This document shows positions 12,967-22,528 of a stretch of 64,000 nt of DNA, in pieces. A model generated the notes under the pieces. The model had not been told where the DNA came from. It worked only from the letters and a program-made list of their open reading frames with translations, and did no database searches. How positions within the stretch are numbered: the first letter of the stretch is position 1; each line of letters starts with the position of its first letter. The DNA comes from Brassicibacter mesophilus (GTDB taxonomy: Bacteria; Bacillota; Clostridia; Tissierellales; Proteiniboraceae): NCBI RefSeq assembly GCF_050433385.1, contig NZ_JBNPXI010000003.1, positions 159,939 to 223,938 on the forward strand, written 5' to 3'. Both the position numbers and the translations under genes were made by a program.

Positions 12967-14040
12967 TTGAAAATAAGGTTTGATCCAAAGATAGGAGAAG
13001 TAAATGATTTCTTTTCATTTTTGTATTGGGTATATAATTCTGATGAGATTAATAAACAATTTGAGGAATATGAATTAGAATCAAATGAAGATTATGAAAG
13101 CTTTATAAGAAAGGTAAAGCAGGATGAATATGTACAGAATGAAAAATTGAAATCGTACTACAGTATGGAAATTGGATTAGCTGATGTTTTTTTATTGTAT
13201 TCTGAAATATGGGAGTATCCAGAAATAGATGAATGTCTAAACTTTATAAAGAAGTTAGATAAGAATACCCTAAGATTTAGATTAATAAGAGAGATAATTA
13301 GATGTGGAAAAAATGGTAATGAGCTAGAAGAGATTAATAAGCGAGCAAAAGAAATTGCAATAGATGAGCATAAGAGTATCACTTTTATTAAGGATTTAGA
13401 TTATGATTCAGGTTTAAAATGGGACTTATTTTGTTTCTTACAAGAGCCTGAGAAATACAGAGATGATTACGTCAGCCTTATGCAGAATTTAATACCGGTG
13501 TTCTATAAGTATTATGAGCCAGAAAGAAAAGAGATTAATGCGTTTAATAAACATATTGAAAAGAATTTTAATGACAAAGGAATTAATTTTCTTAAACAAT
13601 TCACTGGTAAATTTTTTAAATACGAAATATATGAAGAAGTTTTTATAACTACTAGCTACGTTAACTACTATTCACTTATGTTTAAGGTCTCAGGTCATTC
13701 GAGCTATATTTATCTAGGATTAGGCTTTGAGGAATCTATCAAGCAGTATAAGGGAGGAGAAGAAGATAAGCTAAAAAAATATGTTAATATATTTAAAAAC
13801 TTTTCGGATACTACTAGATTTCAAATACTTAAGCTTATAGTTGAGGATGAAGAATACTGTAGTAAAGATATTGCTGAAAAGCTTGGAATTACTGGAGCCA
13901 CAGTTTCATATCATATCAATAATCTTTGTTCTGCAGAATTAGTTATAATAGATAGGAAAGACAGGAAAAATATCTACACTGTAAATAAAGACGTTATTAG
14001 AGATGGAATAGAGTTTTTAATTAAAGAGCTTAAGCTATAA
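12967..14040 (+). CDS. ArsR-family winged-helix transcriptional regulator with ~250-aa uncharacterised N-terminal domain
   Basis: C-terminal TRFQILKLI...CSKDIAEKLGITGATVSYHINNLCSAELV matches ArsR/SmtB HTH; TTG start 8 nt after AGGAGGG; N-terminal region without recognisable motif. Confidence 0.6.
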   Translation: MKIRFDPKIGEVNDFFSFLYWVYNSDEINKQFEEYELESNEDYESFIRKVKQDEYVQNEKLKSYYSMEIGLADVFLLYSEIWEYPEIDECLNFIKKLDKNTLRFRLIREIIRCGKNGNELEEINKRAKEIAIDEHKSITFIKDLDYDSGLKWDLFCFLQEPEKYRDDYVSLMQNLIPVFYKYYEPERKEINAFNKHIEKNFNDKGINFLKQFTGKFFKYEIYEEVFITTSYVNYYSLMFKVSGHSSYIYLGLGFEESIKQYKGGEEDKLKKYVNIFKNFSDTTRFQILKLIVEDEEYCSKDIAEKLGITGATVSYHINNLCSAELVIIDRKDRKNIYTVNKDVIRDGIEFLIKELKL

Positions 14041-14076
14041 GCTGTTATTTCATTATAAAGTCAGGGAGGCTATAAC

Positions 14077-15381
14077 ATGGGGGATAATGTTCAAGATTTA
14101 AGAATGAAAAAATCTAAGATTATGTCAAATATGGTGTTATTACTTTTAGGAAGGCTAGTATCTTTATTTGGTACACGGATATACAGCTTTGCAATAAGTC
14201 TTTATGTATTAAAAACTACTGGTTCAGGAACTACTTTTGCACTATCATTAGTTTTTGGAACACTTCCAGCAGTAATTTTTGGACCTATAGCAGGTGTTAT
14301 CAGTGACAAAATTAACAGAAAAAGAATAGTTGTAGTTATGGACATTTTAAGCGGGATCGTCGTGTTATTGCTGTTTAGTGTAGCAATAATAGATGATTTA
14401 AGATTATCTTATATATACATCACATCTTTTCTATTATCTACATGTAATACTTTCTTTAATGTTCCTTTCCAAGTATCTATACCTAATATAGTAGATGAAA
14501 AAAATCTTATGAGAGCTAATTCACTAAATCAAGCTATAACTTCAATTACTTCTATAGCAGGACCATTTTTAGGAGGTCTTGTATATGCATTTATTGATAT
14601 TAAGCTGTTTCTTATCATAAATGGTATATCCTTTATAGCTTCTGGAATCACTGAGATGTTTATTGACTTTAATTTAAATAAACCTGAATTAAATGAACAA
14701 ACGTTAGAGGCAGAAAATATTGAAGTAGGCAAGAACTCAATCATTGAAAACTTCTTGCGTGATTTTATAGAAGGGTTCTCGTATCTTAAATCTACAAGGT
14801 CTATGTTTATGTTATTTATTTCAGCAATATTTATAAATTTCTTCATGACTCTAGGAATAACAGTTCCATTTCCTTATATGGTTAATGAGATACTTAAGAT
14901 GTCATCAAAACAATTTGGTGTTTTAGAAGCTATATTTCCATTGGGAATGCTTGCGGGATCAATTGCTTTATCAGTAATGCCTCAGAGTGAAAAGAACTTC
15001 AAGAAAATTATATTTGGATTACTAGTTACAAATGCTGGTATTATCTTGATGGGAGTTTCTGTTGTACCTGAACTGTTGATATTTAGTAAGAACACATATT
15101 TTATTGGATATATAATAGTTTCATTCATCATATCTATAGCGATTGTTGTTATAAACATACCTATCGAGGTAACTCTTCAAAGAGAAATTCCTGATAATAT
15201 CAGAGGAAGAATATTTGGACTGATTAGTACCATTGCTATGTCATGTACGCCAATAGGTATGATACTTTCAGGCGTACTAATTGATTTGATTCCTGTATGG
15301 ATATTGCCAGTACTTTCTGGGCTTGTTCTTCTAGGATTGACAGTAACTATGGCTAATAATAAAGATATTAGAGAGTTATAG
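14077..15381 (+). CDS. MFS transporter (drug/enterobactin-exporter-like subfamily)
   Basis: 434 aa, ~12 hydrophobic helices, MFS motif-A-like GPIAGVISDKINRKR between TM2-3. Confidence 0.8.
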   Translation: MGDNVQDLRMKKSKIMSNMVLLLLGRLVSLFGTRIYSFAISLYVLKTTGSGTTFALSLVFGTLPAVIFGPIAGVISDKINRKRIVVVMDILSGIVVLLLFSVAIIDDLRLSYIYITSFLLSTCNTFFNVPFQVSIPNIVDEKNLMRANSLNQAITSITSIAGPFLGGLVYAFIDIKLFLIINGISFIASGITEMFIDFNLNKPELNEQTLEAENIEVGKNSIIENFLRDFIEGFSYLKSTRSMFMLFISAIFINFFMTLGITVPFPYMVNEILKMSSKQFGVLEAIFPLGMLAGSIALSVMPQSEKNFKKIIFGLLVTNAGIILMGVSVVPELLIFSKNTYFIGYIIVSFIISIAIVVINIPIEVTLQREIPDNIRGRIFGLISTIAMSCTPIGMILSGVLIDLIPVWILPVLSGLVLLGLTVTMANNKDIREL

Positions 15382-15473
15382 GAAAAATAGTATAGGATCG
15401 TTAGAAGTGCAAGAATTATATATTATTTTGAAAACAATGTTACAAAGGATTCAAAGTAATACCAAATGGAAAC

Positions 15474-15498
15474 AAAGGCAGGTTGTTCACCTGCCTTT
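15474..15498. terminator. bidirectional rho-independent terminator
   Basis: AAAGGCAGGT-tgttc-ACCTGCCTTT; A-tract one side, T-tract other; lies between convergent MFS (+) and DtxR-like (-) genes. Confidence 0.7.
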
Positions 15499-15861
15499 AG
15501 TCTGTTTAAAATGTTTCTTTATACATTGATAACTTTCATCGCTGATATCGTGCTCAATTTTACAGGCATCTGCTAGAGCAGTTTTTTCACTAACACCTAA
15601 TGCCATTAAAAACTTAGCAAGGGTTTGATGCCGATCATACATTCGAGTTGCAATTTCAAGACCGTCACCTATTAATGTGATATACCCATCAGAATCTATA
15701 TTGATATATCCATTTTCCCGTAGTTTCTTCATAGCGACACTGATGCTGGGCTTAGTATATCCTGTTTCGTTCACTATATCAATAGAACGTACCTGGCCAA
15801 TATGCTCCTTAAGCATCAGAATAGTTTCCAAATAGTCTTCTGCCGACTCTTGTATTTTCAT
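15487..15861 (-). CDS. DtxR/MntR-family metal-dependent transcriptional regulator
   Basis: 124 aa; AEDYLETILML...VRSIDIVNETGYTKPSISVAMKKLRENGYI HTH and metal-binding region typical of MntR/DtxR. Confidence 0.8.
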   Translation of the reverse strand: MKIQESAEDYLETILMLKEHIGQVRSIDIVNETGYTKPSISVAMKKLRENGYINIDSDGYITLIGDGLEIATRMYDRHQTLAKFLMALGVSEKTALADACKIEHDISDESYQCIKKHFKQTKGR

Positions 15862-15895
15862 TTTCTCACCTCACAAAATTTATTTATATATCTAT

Positions 15896-15911
15896 GTTAG
15901 TATATACTAAC
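15896..15911. promoter_or_regulatory. perfect 16-bp palindrome GTTAGTATATACTAAC upstream of DtxR-family gene (candidate auto-operator)
   Basis: Exact inverted repeat ~35 nt upstream of the - strand start codon at 15861. Confidence 0.45.
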
Positions 15912-15974
15912 TGTTTTTTCAAGGACTGCTTTTTACCGATTGACAAATCAGTATTACAATGATAACGTAATATT

Positions 15975-16004
15975 TTGGTAGGTTAGTTAACGCTAACCTA
16001 CCAA
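15975..16004. promoter_or_regulatory. palindrome TTGGTAGGTTAG-ttaacg-CTAACCTACCAA (DtxR-box-like half-sites)
   Basis: 12-bp perfect arms; half-sites GGTTAG/CTAACC resemble DtxR/IdeR consensus TTAGGTTAGCCTAACCTAA; in divergent intergenic region between DtxR-like and AraC genes. Confidence 0.45.
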
Positions 16005-16114
16005 GCAGTAGACATGATTATTAATTGCCAATATAAATTATTAGTATTAAGTAGAGAAAGCGTGATAGTTTGTTTTTTATTTATGAAGTAACAATGTAAG
16101 GAGGGTAAAAACAC

Positions 16115-17110
16115 GTGAGTATGTTATCAAAAGATAGAGAACTATATGGTCCTGAAGTGAAAGTGATTTCACAGTCCGAAGATTGTGTGGTATACAAAAT
16201 GAAAAACGATAATGGGGAAGGTATAATGACCAGCTATCAAGTATTTCCAGGGATTGTATTGGTTTATAATGACTTTCATATGGGGAGCTGCGTTTATAAT
16301 AAACAGCCATGTGCTGATATTATGGAAATCAATCATTGCCGTCAGGGACGATTTGAATGTGAATTTTTAAATGGGGGCTATGTATATCTAGAAGAAGGTG
16401 ATCTTGCTGTAAATATGCTAAGCAATAGAACTACAAGATCTTGTTTTCCACTGGAGCATTATCACGGTGTCTCTGTGATAATATGTCTTTATGAGGCTGA
16501 AAAATCAATTTCTTCTGTTTTAGATGATATATCAATTGACCTATATTCTTTACGTGATAAGCTATGCAGTAAAGATAAATGTTTTATCATGCGTGCCAAG
16601 AATTCTATAGAGCATATTTTCTTCGAGCTTTATACAGTGCCGGATGAAGTCAAGCATGGATACTTTAAACTGAAGGTACTGGAACTTCTATTATTTCTTA
16701 GTATTGCAGATGTTTCAGAACAAAGAGAAGAACGACAGTATTTTCACAAGAGTCAGGTCGATATTGTTAAAGCAATTAAGGAACACATGACACAGCACTT
16801 GGAGCAACATAATACACTGGAGGAATTGTCCAACCGTTTCAAAATACCTCTAACAGCTATGAAGCTTTGTTTCAAAGGAGTCTATGGAACATCGATTTAT
16901 GCCTATATGCGTTCCTATCGAATGCAGGCTGCTGCTGTAATGCTACGCCAATGCAATGATAGTGTTACTGACATTGCAGGCAAGGTCGGATATAGCAATT
17001 CTAGTAAATTTGCGTCGGCATTTAAAGCTGTTATAGGGATGTCACCATTGGAATACAGGAAAACAAGTCGTCTAAATGGAGCATTTTTGACCGTTCGGAG
17101 TAGAAAATAA
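16115..17110 (+). CDS. AraC-family transcriptional regulator
   Basis: C-terminal dual HTH (MRSYRMQAAAVMLRQCNDSVTDIAGKVGYSNSSKFASAFKAVIGMSPLEYR); N-terminal ligand-binding-like domain. Confidence 0.8.
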   Translation: MSMLSKDRELYGPEVKVISQSEDCVVYKMKNDNGEGIMTSYQVFPGIVLVYNDFHMGSCVYNKQPCADIMEINHCRQGRFECEFLNGGYVYLEEGDLAVNMLSNRTTRSCFPLEHYHGVSVIICLYEAEKSISSVLDDISIDLYSLRDKLCSKDKCFIMRAKNSIEHIFFELYTVPDEVKHGYFKLKVLELLLFLSIADVSEQREERQYFHKSQVDIVKAIKEHMTQHLEQHNTLEELSNRFKIPLTAMKLCFKGVYGTSIYAYMRSYRMQAAAVMLRQCNDSVTDIAGKVGYSNSSKFASAFKAVIGMSPLEYRKTSRLNGAFLTVRSRK

Positions 17111-17227
17111 GCGTAAAAAAAACTATAATAGTGCGTATCAGTGATCGACTTAAGGTGCCTAGAAGTGTATTTTTGGCAGCGGGTTAGTTGAAACTAACTA
17201 AAATCATTTATGTTAGGAGGGTAATTT

Positions 17228-17257
17228 ATGAAGAGAAGCAGTGTGCAATATATATGA
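17228..17257 (+). CDS. 9-codon upstream mini-ORF (MKRSSVQYI) translationally coupled to leader ORF
   Basis: AGGAGGG RBS 7 nt upstream of ATG 17228; its TGA overlaps the ATG of the next ORF (ATATGA). Confidence 0.3.
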   Translation: MKRSSVQYI

Positions 17258-17433
17258 AGTGCGTGTTGCAGAAATTTTTTGACTATCTAATCAATTACAA
17301 CAATGACAACGTGCCCAATACTCCTCTTACTTATGTCAAAGACATGATCGTGTATAATACTGACAAAATCAAAGACTATACCTTCAACAACACTCCAAAG
17401 TTCTTTGATATTAGACAATTATATGTTAAATAA
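17254..17433 (+). CDS. candidate leader peptide (BmrB-like, 59 aa from ATG 17254; 81 aa if TTG 17188)
   Basis: Small ORF immediately upstream of heterodimeric ABC exporter genes, followed by intrinsic terminator before the ABC start; no similarity recognisable. Confidence 0.35.
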   Translation: MKCVLQKFFDYLINYNNDNVPNTPLTYVKDMIVYNTDKIKDYTFNNTPKFFDIRQLYVK

Positions 17434-17499
17434 ATTGTTGTCCGATTGGAGTCGAATTGACTTTACGGAGTAGAACAGAAAAATAAAAGAGCTTAAAAT

Positions 17500-17537
17500 A
17501 GAGGTTGGTTAGCTTTAACTAACTAACCTCTATTTTT
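17500..17537 (+). terminator. intrinsic terminator / attenuator upstream of ABC exporter operon
   Basis: AGAGGTTGGTTAG-cttta-ACTAACTAACCTCT stem then TATTTTT; immediately followed by RBS GAAAGGAGC and ATG 17554. Confidence 0.65.
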
Positions 17538-17553
17538 GAAAGGAGCATTTATT

Positions 17554-19371
17554 ATGAAACAAAAATCTAAAAAAAAGAATGGTTTCTCCCGATTATTTGA
17601 AATAGCGGGTGAAAAAAAGATGCTGCTGATCGCCTCAGGATTTTTATCGGCGCTTAGTGCAGCATGTATGCTTGTTCCGTTTATATCTGTTTATCAGATC
17701 CTGGGAGAATTGTTGCAAAACGGAGGTAGCATTGTCTTGGTGAACAGTACCATGATGATTAGGTGGGGCTGGATAGCTTTTGCGGGATTAATTGCAGGAT
17801 TGCTGTTTTTGTACGCTGCAATCATCTGCTCCCATGTAGCAGCTTTCCGAATTTTATACGGGCTGCGAATGGGGCTCGCAAAGCATATCGGTAAGCTATC
17901 GCTTGGGTATTTGAACAGCACTGCAACAGGTGCTGTAAAAAAGAATTTGGAGCAAGATGTGGAACGAATAGAGTTGTTTGTTGCTCACACAATTCCAGAC
18001 CTTGTGAATGTAGGGGCAACGGTTGTTGTGATGTTTGTTATATTCTTCAGCCTTAACGGTTGGATGGCGCTTACCTGTGTCATCGCCTTTGCCATCAGTA
18101 TAGCTATGCAGGCTTCAATGATGTTTGGTAAAAAAGCACAAGGCACAATGAAAGCTTATTTTGATTCACAAGAACGTATCCATTCTTCAGCCATACAATA
18201 TGTCCGAGGTATACCAGTAGTTAAAATATTCGGACAGACCGTTTTTTCTTTTAAAAAATTTCATGCAGATCTGTACAATTACAGAGACTGGGCAGTTGCT
18301 TATTGTGATAAATTCGAAAACGGTATGGCTGTTTTTACAGTAATACTCAACTCGTTTTTGACGTTTATCCTGCCTGTGGGCTTGCTGATTATGAGTGGAG
18401 ACCCAAATAATATTTCCTTTGCCCTCGTATACTTGTTTTTTATTATCATGGTTCCAGGTGCATCCTCTCCGCTGTATAAATTGACTTTACTCGCTTCGGG
18501 GACAAGAGAGATTTTTGAAGGCGTTTCACGCATTGATAAAATCTATGATGAAGAGCCAATCAAGGAGACTTCAAGTCCTAAATATCCTAACAGTCATGAT
18601 ATTACCTTTGAAAATGTGACCTTTGCTTATGAAAATAAAGCAGAAGCAACAAGAGTTGAAGCTCTGACCAATATCAGCTTTACTGCCAAAGCTGAAGAGA
18701 TAACTGCTTTGGTAGGACCGTCGGGCTCCGGGAAATCTACCGTGGCCAATCTAATTCCTCGCTTTTGGGATGTCACAACTGGAGAAATCAAAATCGGGGG
18801 AGTGAATATAAAGGATATTTCTACAGAAGAACTTATGAATACAGTATCATTCGTATTTCAGGATACATTTCTTTTTTACGATACGTTGTTTGAGAACATT
18901 AAGGTTGGCAGACCTGATGCCACTGACGAGGAAGTCTATGCAGCTGCGAGAGTAGCACAATGTCATGAATTTATTGAAAGCTTGCCAGATGGTTACAATA
19001 CACTCATAGGTGAAGGTGGTGTGTTTCTTTCTGGAGGTGAAGAACAGCGTGTTTCAGTTGCTCGTGCTATTCTCAAAGATGCACCTATTCTCGTTCTTGA
19101 CGAAGCAACAGCCTTTGCTGATCCTGAAAATGAATACAAGATGCAGATTGCATTGAAAGAACTCATTAAAAGCAAAACGGTTATTGTTATTGCTCACAGA
19201 CTATCCTCCATTAAAACTGCTAATCAAATTATCGTGCTAAAAAATGGGAAAATTGAACAAATCGGTACCCACGATAATCTGACAGCTATGGAAGGTCTAT
19301 ATCAGCGAATGTGGAAAGCCTATACCAGTGCTTACGACTGGACACTGAAAACTGGAGGTGTGAAAGCATGA
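17554..19371 (+). CDS. ABC exporter, fused permease-ATPase half-transporter (BmrC/YheI-like)
   Basis: 6-TM N-domain + NBD with Walker A GPSGSGKST, signature LSGGEEQR, Walker B LVLDEAT; ORF track start 17536, RBS favours 17554. Confidence 0.85.
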   Translation: MKQKSKKKNGFSRLFEIAGEKKMLLIASGFLSALSAACMLVPFISVYQILGELLQNGGSIVLVNSTMMIRWGWIAFAGLIAGLLFLYAAIICSHVAAFRILYGLRMGLAKHIGKLSLGYLNSTATGAVKKNLEQDVERIELFVAHTIPDLVNVGATVVVMFVIFFSLNGWMALTCVIAFAISIAMQASMMFGKKAQGTMKAYFDSQERIHSSAIQYVRGIPVVKIFGQTVFSFKKFHADLYNYRDWAVAYCDKFENGMAVFTVILNSFLTFILPVGLLIMSGDPNNISFALVYLFFIIMVPGASSPLYKLTLLASGTREIFEGVSRIDKIYDEEPIKETSSPKYPNSHDITFENVTFAYENKAEATRVEALTNISFTAKAEEITALVGPSGSGKSTVANLIPRFWDVTTGEIKIGGVNIKDISTEELMNTVSFVFQDTFLFYDTLFENIKVGRPDATDEEVYAAARVAQCHEFIESLPDGYNTLIGEGGVFLSGGEEQRVSVARAILKDAPILVLDEATAFADPENEYKMQIALKELIKSKTVIVIAHRLSSIKTANQIIVLKNGKIEQIGTHDNLTAMEGLYQRMWKAYTSAYDWTLKTGGVKA

Positions 19372-21098
19372 GAATCTTTCAAAATATTACTGTTGGACAA
19401 CCGAAAAGACTGGTTAAGCCTATCGGATTTACTATTTTGGCTAATTTGGTTAATGTCATTCCGTTTATGTTTTCCATTGAAGCGGTAAGAATTATATTCA
19501 ATGCTTTCAATGGTTCTGGCACAGGTTTGGATACTACTCACCTTTGGATGATTATTGGGAGCTTGTTTGCTTATATGATAGTGATGTTTATCGCAGAGAA
19601 GCCTGCATACCGCCATAGTTATCGTGATGCTTATGAACTCTCTGCAGACGGCAGAGCAAATCTAGCCGAGCACCTGAGGAGGCTTCCACTAGGTTATATT
19701 ATAAGCCGTGATCCAGGTGATCTAGCAAATATGATGATGGGTGATTTTACATTGATTGAAACAGGTGTATCTCATATTGTTCCACAGCTATTTGGCGCAC
19801 TAGTTATGCCGTTGATTGCCTTTGTTTCTCTTTTGTGGATCGACTGGCGTATGTCTATTGCTATGTTTGTGGCACTTCCCCTTGCCATACTTTTATTGTG
19901 GACTTGTTCCAAAATTCAGAAACGTATGGCAGACAGGCAAATGAAATTCAAGCTTGATGCAGGTAACCGCCTGCAGGAATATCTGTTTGGTATTCGTGTT
20001 ATGAAAGCCTATAATCTGGTAGGTGAGAGATTTATCCGTCTTGATAATGCTTTTAAAAAATTAATGAAAGAGTGTATTCGCTTTGAAGCCTTAACAGGTC
20101 CCATCGTGCTTACCACTATAACGCTTATTCGAGCAGGTTTGACACTAATGATTTTGACAGGCTCTTATCTGTTGGTAGGGGGTTCTTTAGATGTACTAAC
20201 CTTTGTAATGTTTTTAGTCATTGGCTCCCGGGTATACGATCCTCTTACCTCTGCTTTGATGAAATATGCAGAACTTCGTTATGATGAGCGAGCAGGCGAA
20301 CGTATTTTGAATTTAATGAATGAACAGGAAATGGGTGGTTATAAAGAACCTAACGGTAGTACTGATATTGTGTTTGAAAATGTTTCCTTCGGCTATGGAG
20401 ACAAGGATGTCTTGCATAATGTTTCTTTGACAATGAAGCAAGGAACATTAACAGCACTTGTAGGACCATCGGGAAGTGGTAAAAGTACGGTACTGAAGCT
20501 GTGTGCAAGATTCTATGATCCAAGTGATGGAAAGGTCACTTTCGGAGGAATTGATGAGTCAATCCTTGACCCTGAAAAGCTAATGAAAAAGATTTCAATG
20601 GTATTTCAGGATGTCTATTTGTTTCAAGATACTATCGGCAATAATATTCGTTTTGGGAAAGAAAATGCTACAGATAAAGAGATGATCGAAGCTGCTAAGA
20701 AAGCCTGCTGCTATGATTTCATTATGGCGCTTCCCAAAGGCTTTGATACTATGGTTGGAGAAGGTGGTTGTACTCTTTCTGGTGGTGAAAAACAACGTAT
20801 TTCCATTGCACGTGCTATGCTAAAAGATGCTCCTGTTGTTCTTCTTGATGAGGCAACAGCTTCACTTGATCCCGAAAATGAAGTTGAGGTGCAAAGGGCG
20901 ATCAGTGAGCTGATTGCAGGCAGAACAGTTATTGTAATTGCTCATCGACTTAAAACCATCAAGGATGCAGACAATATCGTTGTTATGGAGGATGGAAAAG
21001 TTGCTGAGCAAGGTACACATGATGAGCTAATCTGTAAGGATGGGCTTTATAAAAAATTATGGACGATCCAGACCGAATCTAGCGGATGGGAATTATAA
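19368..21098 (+). CDS. ABC exporter, fused permease-ATPase half-transporter (BmrD/YheH-like partner)
   Basis: TMD + NBD: GPSGSGKST, LSGGEKQR, LLLDEAT; ATG 19368 overlaps upstream stop (ATGA) after GGAGGTG, indicating heterodimer pair. Confidence 0.85.
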   Translation: MRIFQNITVGQPKRLVKPIGFTILANLVNVIPFMFSIEAVRIIFNAFNGSGTGLDTTHLWMIIGSLFAYMIVMFIAEKPAYRHSYRDAYELSADGRANLAEHLRRLPLGYIISRDPGDLANMMMGDFTLIETGVSHIVPQLFGALVMPLIAFVSLLWIDWRMSIAMFVALPLAILLLWTCSKIQKRMADRQMKFKLDAGNRLQEYLFGIRVMKAYNLVGERFIRLDNAFKKLMKECIRFEALTGPIVLTTITLIRAGLTLMILTGSYLLVGGSLDVLTFVMFLVIGSRVYDPLTSALMKYAELRYDERAGERILNLMNEQEMGGYKEPNGSTDIVFENVSFGYGDKDVLHNVSLTMKQGTLTALVGPSGSGKSTVLKLCARFYDPSDGKVTFGGIDESILDPEKLMKKISMVFQDVYLFQDTIGNNIRFGKENATDKEMIEAAKKACCYDFIMALPKGFDTMVGEGGCTLSGGEKQRISIARAMLKDAPVVLLDEATASLDPENEVEVQRAISELIAGRTVIVIAHRLKTIKDADNIVVMEDGKVAEQGTHDELICKDGLYKKLWTIQTESSGWEL

Positions 21099-21139
21099 CT
21101 ATTGTACAGGATTAACTATAAAGACTTTGGAGGTTCTAC

Positions 21140-22528
21140 ATGGGAGAAACAATGATTGATCAGAAAGAAAAACAAAAGCAATTTATATTGAACGGTAACC
21201 TATGGAAGGTCATGGTTGATTTATCGTGGCCTGCCATTTTAGCCATGGTGCTGTATGGACTGAATTCAGTTTTGGATGCTGTCTTCATCGGAAATTTTGT
21301 AGGGGAAACTGCTTTAGCAGGGGTTTCTGTAGCGTACCCACTTTCCCAAATAAGCGTAGCGTTTGGCTCCTTAATTGGAGTTGGTGCAGGTTCAGTTTTA
21401 AGTATAGCTCTAGGCAGTCAAGACAAAAAAACACAAGAACGGTTATTAGGAAATGTTAACTGGCTGTCTCTTGCTACAACAGTCATTTATATGGTTCTAG
21501 GGCTGCTCTTTTCAACTAAGCTAGTACAGATTATGGGAGGAAAGGGTGAAGCCTTAGTTTTAGGAGATAGTTATTTTAGAATCACTATTTTGGGAGCATT
21601 TTTTTGGATTTACGGATTAGCTGGAAATATGATCATACGAGCCGAGGGAAAAATGAAATCAGCAGCCGCTATGATGGGAATAGGTCTAACTGCCAATGTG
21701 ATTGCTAATTATGTATTTATTGTGCTCTTTGACTTGGGTGTGGAGGGTGCCGCATGGGGCACTAACATTGGAATGTTGGTATATACCCTACTTGGGTGGA
21801 TATATTTTGGGAAAGGCTATGCTTCATTTAAATCGAAGATTTTTTCTTTGCATCGAGATAAGGATATTATAAAATCCATTTTAAGCTTGGGGATGTCTGC
21901 TCTAATTATGAGCATTATGAACCTGATGCAGGCCATCGTTGTTTTTAATGCATTATCAAAATATGGTACAACGGCAGACGTTGCTTTTTACGGAGCAGTA
22001 TATCGTATATTCACATTCCTACTTACTCCAATTTTTGGATTGATGCGTGCGCTGCAGCCTGTGATTGGAATCAATTATGGAGCAAGGCAGTATAACCGTG
22101 TTATTCGCTGCTATAAAATATTTGCTATTGCTTCTATGGTACTGACGTTGCCTTTTTGGATTGTTTCCATGATAGCTCCTAGATCAGTTTTGGAATTGAT
22201 GCTGGCGGAGCAACTTTTTACAAAAACACAATTCTTGTACTTTAGGACCTATATGGGGACTTTGCCAGCATTGTCAATTATCTTTATGGCAATGACATTT
22301 TTCCCGTCTATCGATAAAGGAAAGCCTGCTGCTCTCATCGGTATCGTAAGGCAACTAATTTTTTATGTACCAGTCATGTTGATTTTGCCCAAAATGATTG
22401 GCATATCAGGAATATATTATGGCTCCTTTGCAATTGAGGTGGTTATTATCCTATGGACAATTATTATGGTAAAAAGAGAATTTTCTGTGCTTCGTCTAAA
22501 AGACTCAAGTTCAACGCTTAGGGTATGA
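21140..22528 (+). CDS. MATE-family efflux transporter
   Basis: 462 aa, 12 TM, N-terminal LWKVMVDLSWPAILAMVLYGLNSVLDAVFIGNFVGETALAGVSVAYP typical MATE. Confidence 0.8.
   Translation: MGETMIDQKEKQKQFILNGNLWKVMVDLSWPAILAMVLYGLNSVLDAVFIGNFVGETALAGVSVAYPLSQISVAFGSLIGVGAGSVLSIALGSQDKKTQERLLGNVNWLSLATTVIYMVLGLLFSTKLVQIMGGKGEALVLGDSYFRITILGAFFWIYGLAGNMIIRAEGKMKSAAAMMGIGLTANVIANYVFIVLFDLGVEGAAWGTNIGMLVYTLLGWIYFGKGYASFKSKIFSLHRDKDIIKSILSLGMSALIMSIMNLMQAIVVFNALSKYGTTADVAFYGAVYRIFTFLLTPIFGLMRALQPVIGINYGARQYNRVIRCYKIFAIASMVLTLPFWIVSMIAPRSVLELMLAEQLFTKTQFLYFRTYMGTLPALSIIFMAMTFFPSIDKGKPAALIGIVRQLIFYVPVMLILPKMIGISGIYYGSFAIEVVIILWTIIMVKREFSVLRLKDSSSTLRV

Follow-up and report, generated by a model that had tools for sequence, protein, structure and literature searches.

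A 64,000-nucleotide stretch of the Brassicibacter mesophilus genome (contig NZ_JBNPXI010000003.1, positions 159,939 to 223,938), hereafter the window, contains a small metal-dependent regulator gene accompanied by four related palindromes. The regulator, a DtxR/MntR-family protein of 124 amino acids (aa), is encoded on the minus strand at 15487–15861. An AraC-family gene (araC) with Pfam HTH_18 and HTH_AraC matches lies on the plus strand at 16115–17110, and downstream of it is a heterodimeric pair of exporter-fold ATP-binding cassette (ABC) genes with Pfam ABC_membrane and ABC_tran matches, encoding 605 aa (17554–19371) and 576 aa (19368–21098), also on the plus strand. The four palindromes all fall within about 1.6 kb of non-coding DNA around the regulator and AraC genes. 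The regulator is presumed to bind them, with the AraC-family protein as presumed co-activator of the transporter promoters and the ABC pair as the presumed regulated cargo.

All four palindromes listed in an earlier note on this DNA are present, and they share an exact feature that its reader overlooked: each contains the same 16-bp motif, GTTAG-N6-CTAAC, with a spacer that is invariably 6 bp. The motif copies, here termed O1 to O4, start at 15896, 15982, 17183 and 17508 and end at 15911, 15997, 17198 and 17523, respectively, and in each the centres of the half-sites are 11 bp apart, or about one helical turn. O1, GTTAGTATATACTAAC, is a perfect 16-mer (GTTAG-tatata-CTAAC). O2 is the core of a longer palindrome at 15975–16004, TTGGTAGGTTAG-ttaacg-CTAACCTACCAA, with 12-bp arms that are 100% complementary. 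O3 reads GTTAGTT-ga-AACTAAC. O4 forms the top of a long hairpin with arms at 17495–17512 and 17519–17536 that are 94% complementary and enclose a 6-nt loop; for this site the start given earlier, 17506, was off by 3 nt, as GGTTGGTTAG starts at 17503, and the register of the arms was slightly wrong. The window contains 46 copies of GTTAG and 33 of CTAAC, which predicts about 0.02 pairs at a spacer of 6 bp. Shuffled versions of the window yield 0.69 matches for all spacers from 0 to 12, and only 1 in 100 shuffles reaches four. A chance origin of the four sites is excluded. The motif scan covered the whole 64-kb window and found no fifth match there, even with one mismatch tolerated.

The 124-aa protein is 100% identical to a Brassicibacter mesophilus protein named "metal-dependent transcriptional regulator". 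It has an N-terminal winged-helix DNA-binding domain (Fe_dep_repress, PF01325; 36.1 bits compared to a Pfam cut-off of 26) and a metal-binding and dimerisation domain (Fe_dep_repr_C, PF02742; 46.8 bits compared to a cut-off of 27). The protein ends right after the latter, and the SH3-like third domain is absent. The regulator clade is highly conserved, with 58–87% identity across Clostridia. Among solved structures, the MntR proteins of B. subtilis and E. coli are nearest (PDB 1on1 and 2h09), and DtxR is distant, at 30 bits. Residues D9, E12, H78, C100, E103 and H104 align with the ligand positions of MntR and DtxR; in 18 relatives, all of these are invariant except position 9, which is D or N. 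D9, E12, H78, E103 and H104 correspond to D8, E11, H77, E102 and H103 of MntR. The remaining position, E99 in MntR, is an invariant cysteine (C100) in this clade, as is C102, the iron-sensing residue of DtxR/IdeR.

The motif accompanies this regulator well beyond B. mesophilus. Eighty loci with regulator orthologues were taken from one-genome-per-species contigs, 879 kb in total. They contain 67 exact copies of the motif in 31 of the 80 loci, compared to a shuffle expectation of 0.8, and the identical half-sites occur at every other spacer from 0 to 12 in only 0–1 copies each. Of 79 loci, 25 have an exact site in the 400 bp preceding the regulator gene, compared to 1 of 395 background windows. 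The best match in this upstream region is bimodal, being exact in those 25 loci and background-like in the remainder. Nearly all sites (65 of 67) precede, by no more than 400 bp, one of a short list of genes, namely feoA/feoB, the regulator gene, flavodoxin, DUF3793/DUF2325, ZIP or a window-like ABC gene. The families of the genes behind the sites were confirmed with Pfam, and feoA/feoB are usually divergent from the regulator gene. A logo built from 107 unique sites reads R-GTTAG-YWW|WWR-CTAAC-Y.

The motif also occurs in metagenome loci that carry AraC homologues of 35–62% identity, where it flanks the AraC gene on both sides and also precedes AraC/ABC and ECF operons nearby. These homologues adjoin pairs resembling the 605- and 576-aa ABC proteins, ECF transporters, FeoB or ZIP, and the motif is present even on contigs without a regulator gene. 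Such loci, together with the flanking of araC in the window, could mean that the AraC-family protein, and not the DtxR-family protein, binds the GTTAG palindromes. This is extremely improbable. Most sites in the 80 regulator loci lie at feoAB, flavodoxin and DUF3793, and tblastn probing places an AraC homologue beside only 1 of the 67. Because 65 of the 67 sites precede the gene set listed above, the motif travels with the regulator and not with AraC. Moreover, AraC proteins usually bind direct repeats that overlap the −35, and a conserved direct repeat described below, TGGAG...GGAGT, located 22 nt before a −10, is the better AraC-type site.

The closest relatives keep the layout of the window, with the regulator gene divergent from araC, and with araC followed by a small open reading frame (ORF), when present, and the two ABC genes. 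The regulator is 87% identical in L081, in which an Opp-type importer operon is inserted between araC and the first ABC gene, 85% identical in L084 and 80% identical in L086 (Tissierella praeacuta); the syntenic AraC orthologues are 80–83% identical. The AraC of C. drakei (L009) and the second AraC of L081, at about 20% identity, belong to a different subfamily and were excluded from the AraC query. A Desulfosporosinus contig, L001, is cut within araC and leaves only the divergent regulator/araC junction visible. The 16-bp core of O2 is exact in all five of these loci (window, L084, L086, L081 and L001), with differing spacers, and O4 is exact in the four that reach that point (window, L084, L086 and L081). 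O3 keeps its exact sequence and its place in the window, L084 and L081 and is missing from L086, in which araC directly adjoins the small ORF. Only the window has a perfect O1; the copies in L084, L086 and L081 carry 1–2 mismatches. At O2 to O4, the half-sites are invariant in the relatives while the six spacer bases vary. Invariant half-sites at a constant 6-bp spacing, with variable loop and flanks, are the signature of recognition by a protein.

The same comparisons bear on the suggestion that a dispersed repeat or a mobile-element end, brought in with a genomic island, gave rise to the sites. The segment from 16000 to 22000, which holds araC, the ABC pair and a MATE transporter gene, has 36–41% G+C compared to 32% for the window, and the flanks of the module differ between relatives. 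However, the copies have nothing in common outside the 5-bp half-sites, and none of them belongs to a direct-repeat family. Related Tissierellia carry the module in synteny, no plasmid matched when the whole module was searched, and the motif precedes chromosomal iron genes across Clostridia. The probability of this explanation, which the earlier note had entertained, is close to nil.

Each of the four sites either overlaps a promoter-like element, recognised by its conserved hexamers, or comes directly after one. O1 overlaps the spacer and the −10 of the regulator's own putative promoter, which lies on the minus strand (TTGAAA at 15922–15917, 17 bp, TAACAT at 15899–15894) and has a −35 that is invariant in relatives. 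A predicted araC promoter spans 15940–15968 on the plus strand, with a −35 TTGACA at 15940–15945, a TG at 15960–15961 and a −10 TAACGT at 15963–15968. Its TTGACA, the TGn motif and TAxxxT are invariant across five loci, with 17 bp after TTGACA. O2 begins 13 nt past this −10, and therefore covers about +8 to +23 from the predicted araC start.

Two copies of another promoter-like element lie on the plus strand. Copy 1 (17072–17129) overlaps the 3′ end of araC and consists of TGGAG-N-GGAGT direct repeats, a distance of 22 nt and a −10 TATAAT at 17124–17129; a promoter scan lists TAGAAA-17-TATAAT at 17101–17129. Copy 2 (17442–17499), with a −10 TAAAAT at 17494–17499, is directly upstream of the first ABC gene and aligns gap-free with copy 1. 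The element has the form TGGAG-N14-16-GGAG(T/C)-N21-23-TAnnnT. In copy 2, GGAG, GGAGT and TAxAAT are invariant in the window, L084, L086 and L081, and the element's pattern and spacing (22 nt to the −10) are conserved in at least 15 loci. Because the element follows AraC genes in many loci, the TGGAG...GGAGT direct repeats, which overlap the −35, are candidate AraC boxes. O3 starts 53 nt past the −10 of copy 1 and precedes the first ATG (17228) by 30 nt, and it also lies within a promoter-like pair, TTGGCA (17173–17178), 16 bp, TAACTA (17195–17200). O4 starts 8 nt past the corresponding hexamer of copy 2. The two arrangements are seen again in relatives, that of O3 (+42 to +57 from the −10) in L092–L096, L099, L101 and L103.

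Two of the sites are also capable of forming strong RNA structures. O4 lies at the top of a hairpin with 18-bp arms and a T-run (17495–17536, plus strand), which is followed by the ribosome-binding site (RBS) GAAAGGAG and the ATG of the ABC gene. It folds at −23.4 kcal/mol (z = −8.2), and across the four loci that conserve it 97% of cells are paired. Its stem carries six one-sided changes among the four sequences, all of them G.U or U.G in the sense strand, which is suggestive, although with four sequences a shuffle control on pair counts is non-discriminating. A simple terminator scan did not list this hairpin despite its T-run behind a G+C-rich core. O2 folds at −19.5 kcal/mol (z = −7.3). 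Its extended arms are specific to the window and start where the araC transcript is predicted to begin, so that O2 RNA is possibly a stem-loop at the very 5′ end of that transcript, where a role as a 5′ stabiliser is plausible.

These folds raise the possibility that the palindromes are purely RNA structures, such as terminators, attenuators or 5′ stem-loops, and that their mutual similarity is a by-product. The z-scores of O2 and O4, both below −7, fit such a view, as do the wobble changes confined to the sense strand of O4 and several related loci in which perfect palindromes extend 14–16 bp on each side. O1 and O3, however, fold weakly, at −4.9 and −6.0 kcal/mol, and 86 of the 107 unique sites have only 0–1 extra complementary flank pairs. 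The invariant half-sites and 6-bp spacer amid variable loops and flanks argue in the same direction, as does the presence of sites in divergent intergenic regions and beside the regulator gene in at least 25 loci. An Rfam scan of 15400–17700 at a permissive E-value returned only chance matches to microRNAs and small RNAs; there is therefore no riboswitch or known leader in that interval. Taken as the whole explanation, RNA structure is very improbable.

Since the 5′ arm of the O4 hairpin includes the −10 of copy 2, only transcripts that come from upstream can form the whole hairpin. It is more likely to be a terminator for upstream transcription, fused to the ABC promoter and its operator, than a leader-peptide attenuator. 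A 5′-stabiliser role was also considered for the full O4 hairpin and is unlikely, as the predicted promoter start is inside the 5′ arm.

Taken together, the evidence, all of it computational, makes it highly probable that the four palindromes are operators of the adjacent 124-aa regulator, that this regulator depends on a metal, probably Fe2+, and that it forms part of a repressor-plus-activator circuit. The earlier proposal that the neighbouring DtxR/MntR-family protein binds these sites and places the AraC/ABC module under metal control is strongly supported by the co-occurrence of motif and regulator and by the positional conservation of the sites. We infer from the sequence the binding itself, the identity of the metal, the direction of repression, the transcription starts, the AraC boxes and the transported substrate. 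The system is of an ordinary type, namely a metal-dependent repressor and its palindromic operators, and for the regulator's clade our literature search found neither a published binding site nor an experimental characterisation. The clade's operator may already have been described computationally, in a regulon database for instance.

In the proposed mechanism, the metal-loaded regulator, most likely carrying Fe2+, would bind as one dimer per site. At O1 it would repress its own promoter, and at O2, just past the predicted araC start, it would repress araC. O3 and O4, downstream of or within the two AraC-box promoter copies, would give it control of the small ORF and the ABC pair that these promoters are predicted to drive. 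When iron is sufficient, all four promoters would be shut. When iron is scarce, the repressor would leave, AraC would be made and AraC, probably together with a ligand, would activate the transporter promoters. The O4 hairpin and its T-run would probably terminate transcription from upstream, and the ABC genes would therefore depend on their own repressible promoter. The design would be a repressor-plus-activator feed-forward circuit, like that of Fur with YbtA and ybtPQ.

The metal is suggested primarily by the genes behind the sites. Among the families probed, which did not include NRAMP/MntH or MntABCD, these are mostly feoA/feoB, together with flavodoxin, and this gene set therefore indicates iron; flavodoxin is a classic low-iron substitute. 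The operators and regulator could also be as described but respond to manganese, as in MntR, or to another divalent metal, which we regard as unlikely. Like the MntR proteins of B. subtilis and E. coli, the regulator has a two-domain architecture of the ~125–155 aa class, and five of its six binuclear-site ligand positions are conserved. Iron is not certain, because the MntR models of NCBIfam (as well as the MntR structures in PDB) give the best scores, relatives are named "Mn-dependent" in databases and ZIP permeases are among the targets. However, the scores fall well short of the equivalog cut-offs for MntR (86.1 compared to 153 for PRK11050, and 61.7 compared to 138 for PRK03902). Furthermore, E99 of MntR is replaced by the invariant cysteine, as in C102 of DtxR/IdeR. 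The probed targets are feoAB, flavodoxin and similar genes, with mntH and mntABCD lying outside the probes. Finally, the feoAAB operon of Faecalibacterium is repressed by iron, with no regulator named (PMC10781979).

The best bacterial half-transporter structures for the two ABC proteins are YbtP/YbtQ, at 338 and 309 bits, with IrtA second (296 and 265 bits) and Sav1866 and MsbA behind. The substrate of the pair may be an iron chelate that is taken up, rather than drugs that are exported, and its designation in the earlier note as an efflux module is doubtful, as it is closest to YbtPQ and IrtAB, which are siderophore importers. Genes for siderophore synthesis were not seen nearby, and the 64-kb window holds no feo or flavodoxin gene.

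Similar circuits are known in which Fur acts together with an AraC-type activator to control siderophore transport, namely YbtA with ybtPQ in Yersinia and Btr with feuABC in B. subtilis. The window would share with Fur–YbtA–ybtPQ an iron repressor acting on both an activator gene and the promoters that the activator targets, and a cargo of heterodimeric exporter-fold ABC proteins for which YbtPQ/IrtAB are closest. It differs in that its repressor is of the DtxR type. The region ahead of the ABC pair is also reminiscent of BmrB–BmrCD, a case of leader-peptide attenuation in B. subtilis, in that a heterodimeric ABC pair of the exporter type comes after a small ORF and a T-run hairpin. In contrast to that system, the small ORF of the window is absent or truncated in relatives, and the hairpin carries a conserved putative −10 in its 5′ arm and the predicted operator on top.

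The sites themselves resemble those of the actinobacterial IdeR/DtxR regulators (box TTAGGTTAGSCTAACCTAA, 19 bp), which belong to the same protein family: both have inverted TTAG/CTAA half-sites with GGTTAG/CTAACC arms, and the clostridial sites overlap promoters of iron-uptake genes in a similar manner. The likeness to the DtxR consensus drawn earlier holds for the arms but not for their arrangement, the spacer being 6 bp and not 1. Thus, the 19-bp box with four CCTAA repeats, TTAGGTTAG-S-CTAACCTAA, which binds two dimers, is not matched, as all spacers in the window are 6 bp, and in the 879 kb a spacer of 1 occurs once compared to 67 times for a spacer of 6. IdeR can also bind as a single dimer, to a site of the form TTAGG-N4-CCTAA (PMC8464063). 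Re-registered as G-TTAG-N6-CTAA-C, the window sites have this one-dimer spacing, equivalent to IdeR repeats 1 and 3. Unlike the IdeR box, the clostridial sites have an invariant outer G/C, and the first spacer base, directly after TTAG, is C or T (76% of sites) and rarely G (7%). Additional differences are that the clostridial regulator lacks the SH3-like domain, is only distantly related to DtxR/IdeR and occurs in an anaerobic host.

The regulator may also be compared to small archaeal members of the family. Leyn and Rodionov reportedly described, in 2015, the regulons of FetR, which are said to be two-domain DtxR-family iron regulators of archaea. FetR and TroR resemble the clostridial protein in being small DtxR-family factors predicted or shown to repress feoAB and iron uptake through TTAGG-type palindromes. 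The TroR motif of Haloferax volcanii, TTTAGGC-N3-CCTAAA, also occurs in tandem and is supported by chromatin immunoprecipitation sequencing (PMC10783522). In the archaeal and the clostridial systems alike, tandem motifs lie about 25–30 bp apart. The clostridial sites differ from those of TroR in spacing, sequence and bacterial host, and they are predicted from sequence.

Several points weigh against the operator interpretation or limit it. Assignment of the sites to the regulator rests on co-localisation, and 49 of the 80 orthologue loci have no site within 6 kb, as would be expected if their targets lie elsewhere in the genome. Within B. mesophilus, the scan spans the 64-kb window only. O1 is degenerate in the closest relatives, and the strong hairpins at O2 and O4 may explain part of the conservation of these two sites. 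The transcription starts are deduced positions, and the −10 candidates are weak at O3 (TAACTA) and in the araC promoter of the window (TAACGT). Lastly, the manganese-type names of the relatives, and the fact that the top-scoring family models are those of MntR, though beneath their cut-offs, count against iron as the metal.

A broader reading is that a Clostridia-wide iron regulon, of which our literature search found no account, is controlled by a two-domain, cysteine-containing DtxR-family repressor through RGTTAG-N6-CTAACY. Its targets would comprise feoAB, flavodoxin, DUF3793/DUF2325, ZIP, ECF (Trep_Strep) and an AraC-activated YbtPQ/IrtAB-like importer, and a subset of its operators would double as RNA hairpins, either terminators or 5′ stem-loops, so that a single palindrome would act in both DNA and RNA. 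This reading is a serious possibility that we put forward tentatively. If the sites are rightly assigned to the regulator, a protein found in thousands of Clostridia, many of them from the gut, would have a precise operator that is easily searched for, and iron-responsive genes would become predictable in organisms whose iron control has been ascribed to Fur. A candidate regulator would be at hand for the repression of feoAAB by iron in Faecalibacterium, and DUF3793 and DUF2325 would be tied to iron physiology. In addition, operons described as a multidrug ABC exporter plus AraC could be re-read as probable iron-chelate transport systems under repressor and activator control, and the phenotype expected of the window's module would shift from drug resistance to iron acquisition. 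The predicted regulon and the operators that double as RNA hairpins deserve particular attention.

Further features of the motif were noticed in other loci. Operators precede DUF3793/DUF2325 genes at L002 3602, L007 6503, L013 2328, L023 2320, L033 4473/4528, L045 6774 and L049 2873/2937. These genes often adjoin flavodoxin, which suggests that the two families work under iron limitation. In L094, L101, L103 and similar loci from gut and other metagenome contigs, operators precede ECF-type operons (a Trep_Strep S-component, CbiQ and a fused double ATPase) that adjoin AraC and an ABC pair. Operators are embedded in perfect palindromes extended by 14–16 bp on each side at L090 2382, L091 8790, L093 1902, L128 2062 and L086 6479. 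The flanks of these extended palindromes are unrelated between loci, and several have a TATAAT-like hexamer in one arm, 4–8 nt from the operator.

An operator copy also occurs 24–42 bp ahead of the feoB start in many Clostridia (L002, L005, L011, L014, L031, L040, L045, L049, L062, L066 and L074). The copies between feoA and feoB are usually directly 3′ of a terminator-like hairpin and T-run that end feoA, with the RBS next, and they leave no promoter-sized gap before the RBS. The function of such an operator may be that of an internal roadblock or of a DNA-looping partner. The TAAC of the right half-site was considered as a general −10 and rejected, as the bases after CTAAC vary at these feoB-proximal sites.

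Between O3 and copy 2 of the AraC-box promoter, a 9-codon mini-ORF (17228–17257) with a strong RBS, AGGAGG, at 7 nt overlaps the start of a 59-codon ORF (17254–17433) by ATGA, both on the plus strand. This region was earlier read as a leader, with the hairpin at O4 as its attenuator. That reading is weak: the hairpin overlaps a conserved promoter-like element of its own, and the 59-codon ORF is truncated in L084 and absent in L081, both of which retain the promoter-operator-hairpin unit. No antiterminator pairing was noticed on reading the sequence, although no systematic search was made. The 59-codon ORF has no Pfam or NCBIfam match, and L086 and L084 conserve its C-terminal half (KDMIVYNTDKIKDYTFNNTPKFFDIR). 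The ORF may be a gene in decay or may encode a small protein.

The MATE transporter gene (21140–22528, plus strand; Pfam MatE) lies downstream of the ABC pair and was not found after the pair in L084 or L086; its membership of the regulated unit is uncertain. On the other side of the regulator gene, the interval 12967–15381 encodes a 357-aa protein with a C-terminal ArsR-type helix-turn-helix, and after it an MFS transporter with an additional match to Pfam MFS_3, a family that includes the enterobactin exporter EntS. These two genes may constitute another metal- or siderophore-related pair beside the regulator. The MFS gene (14077–15381) and the regulator gene are convergent, and between them, at 15473–15499, is a G+C-rich hairpin of 10–11 bp with T-runs on both strands, which is likely a bidirectional terminator.

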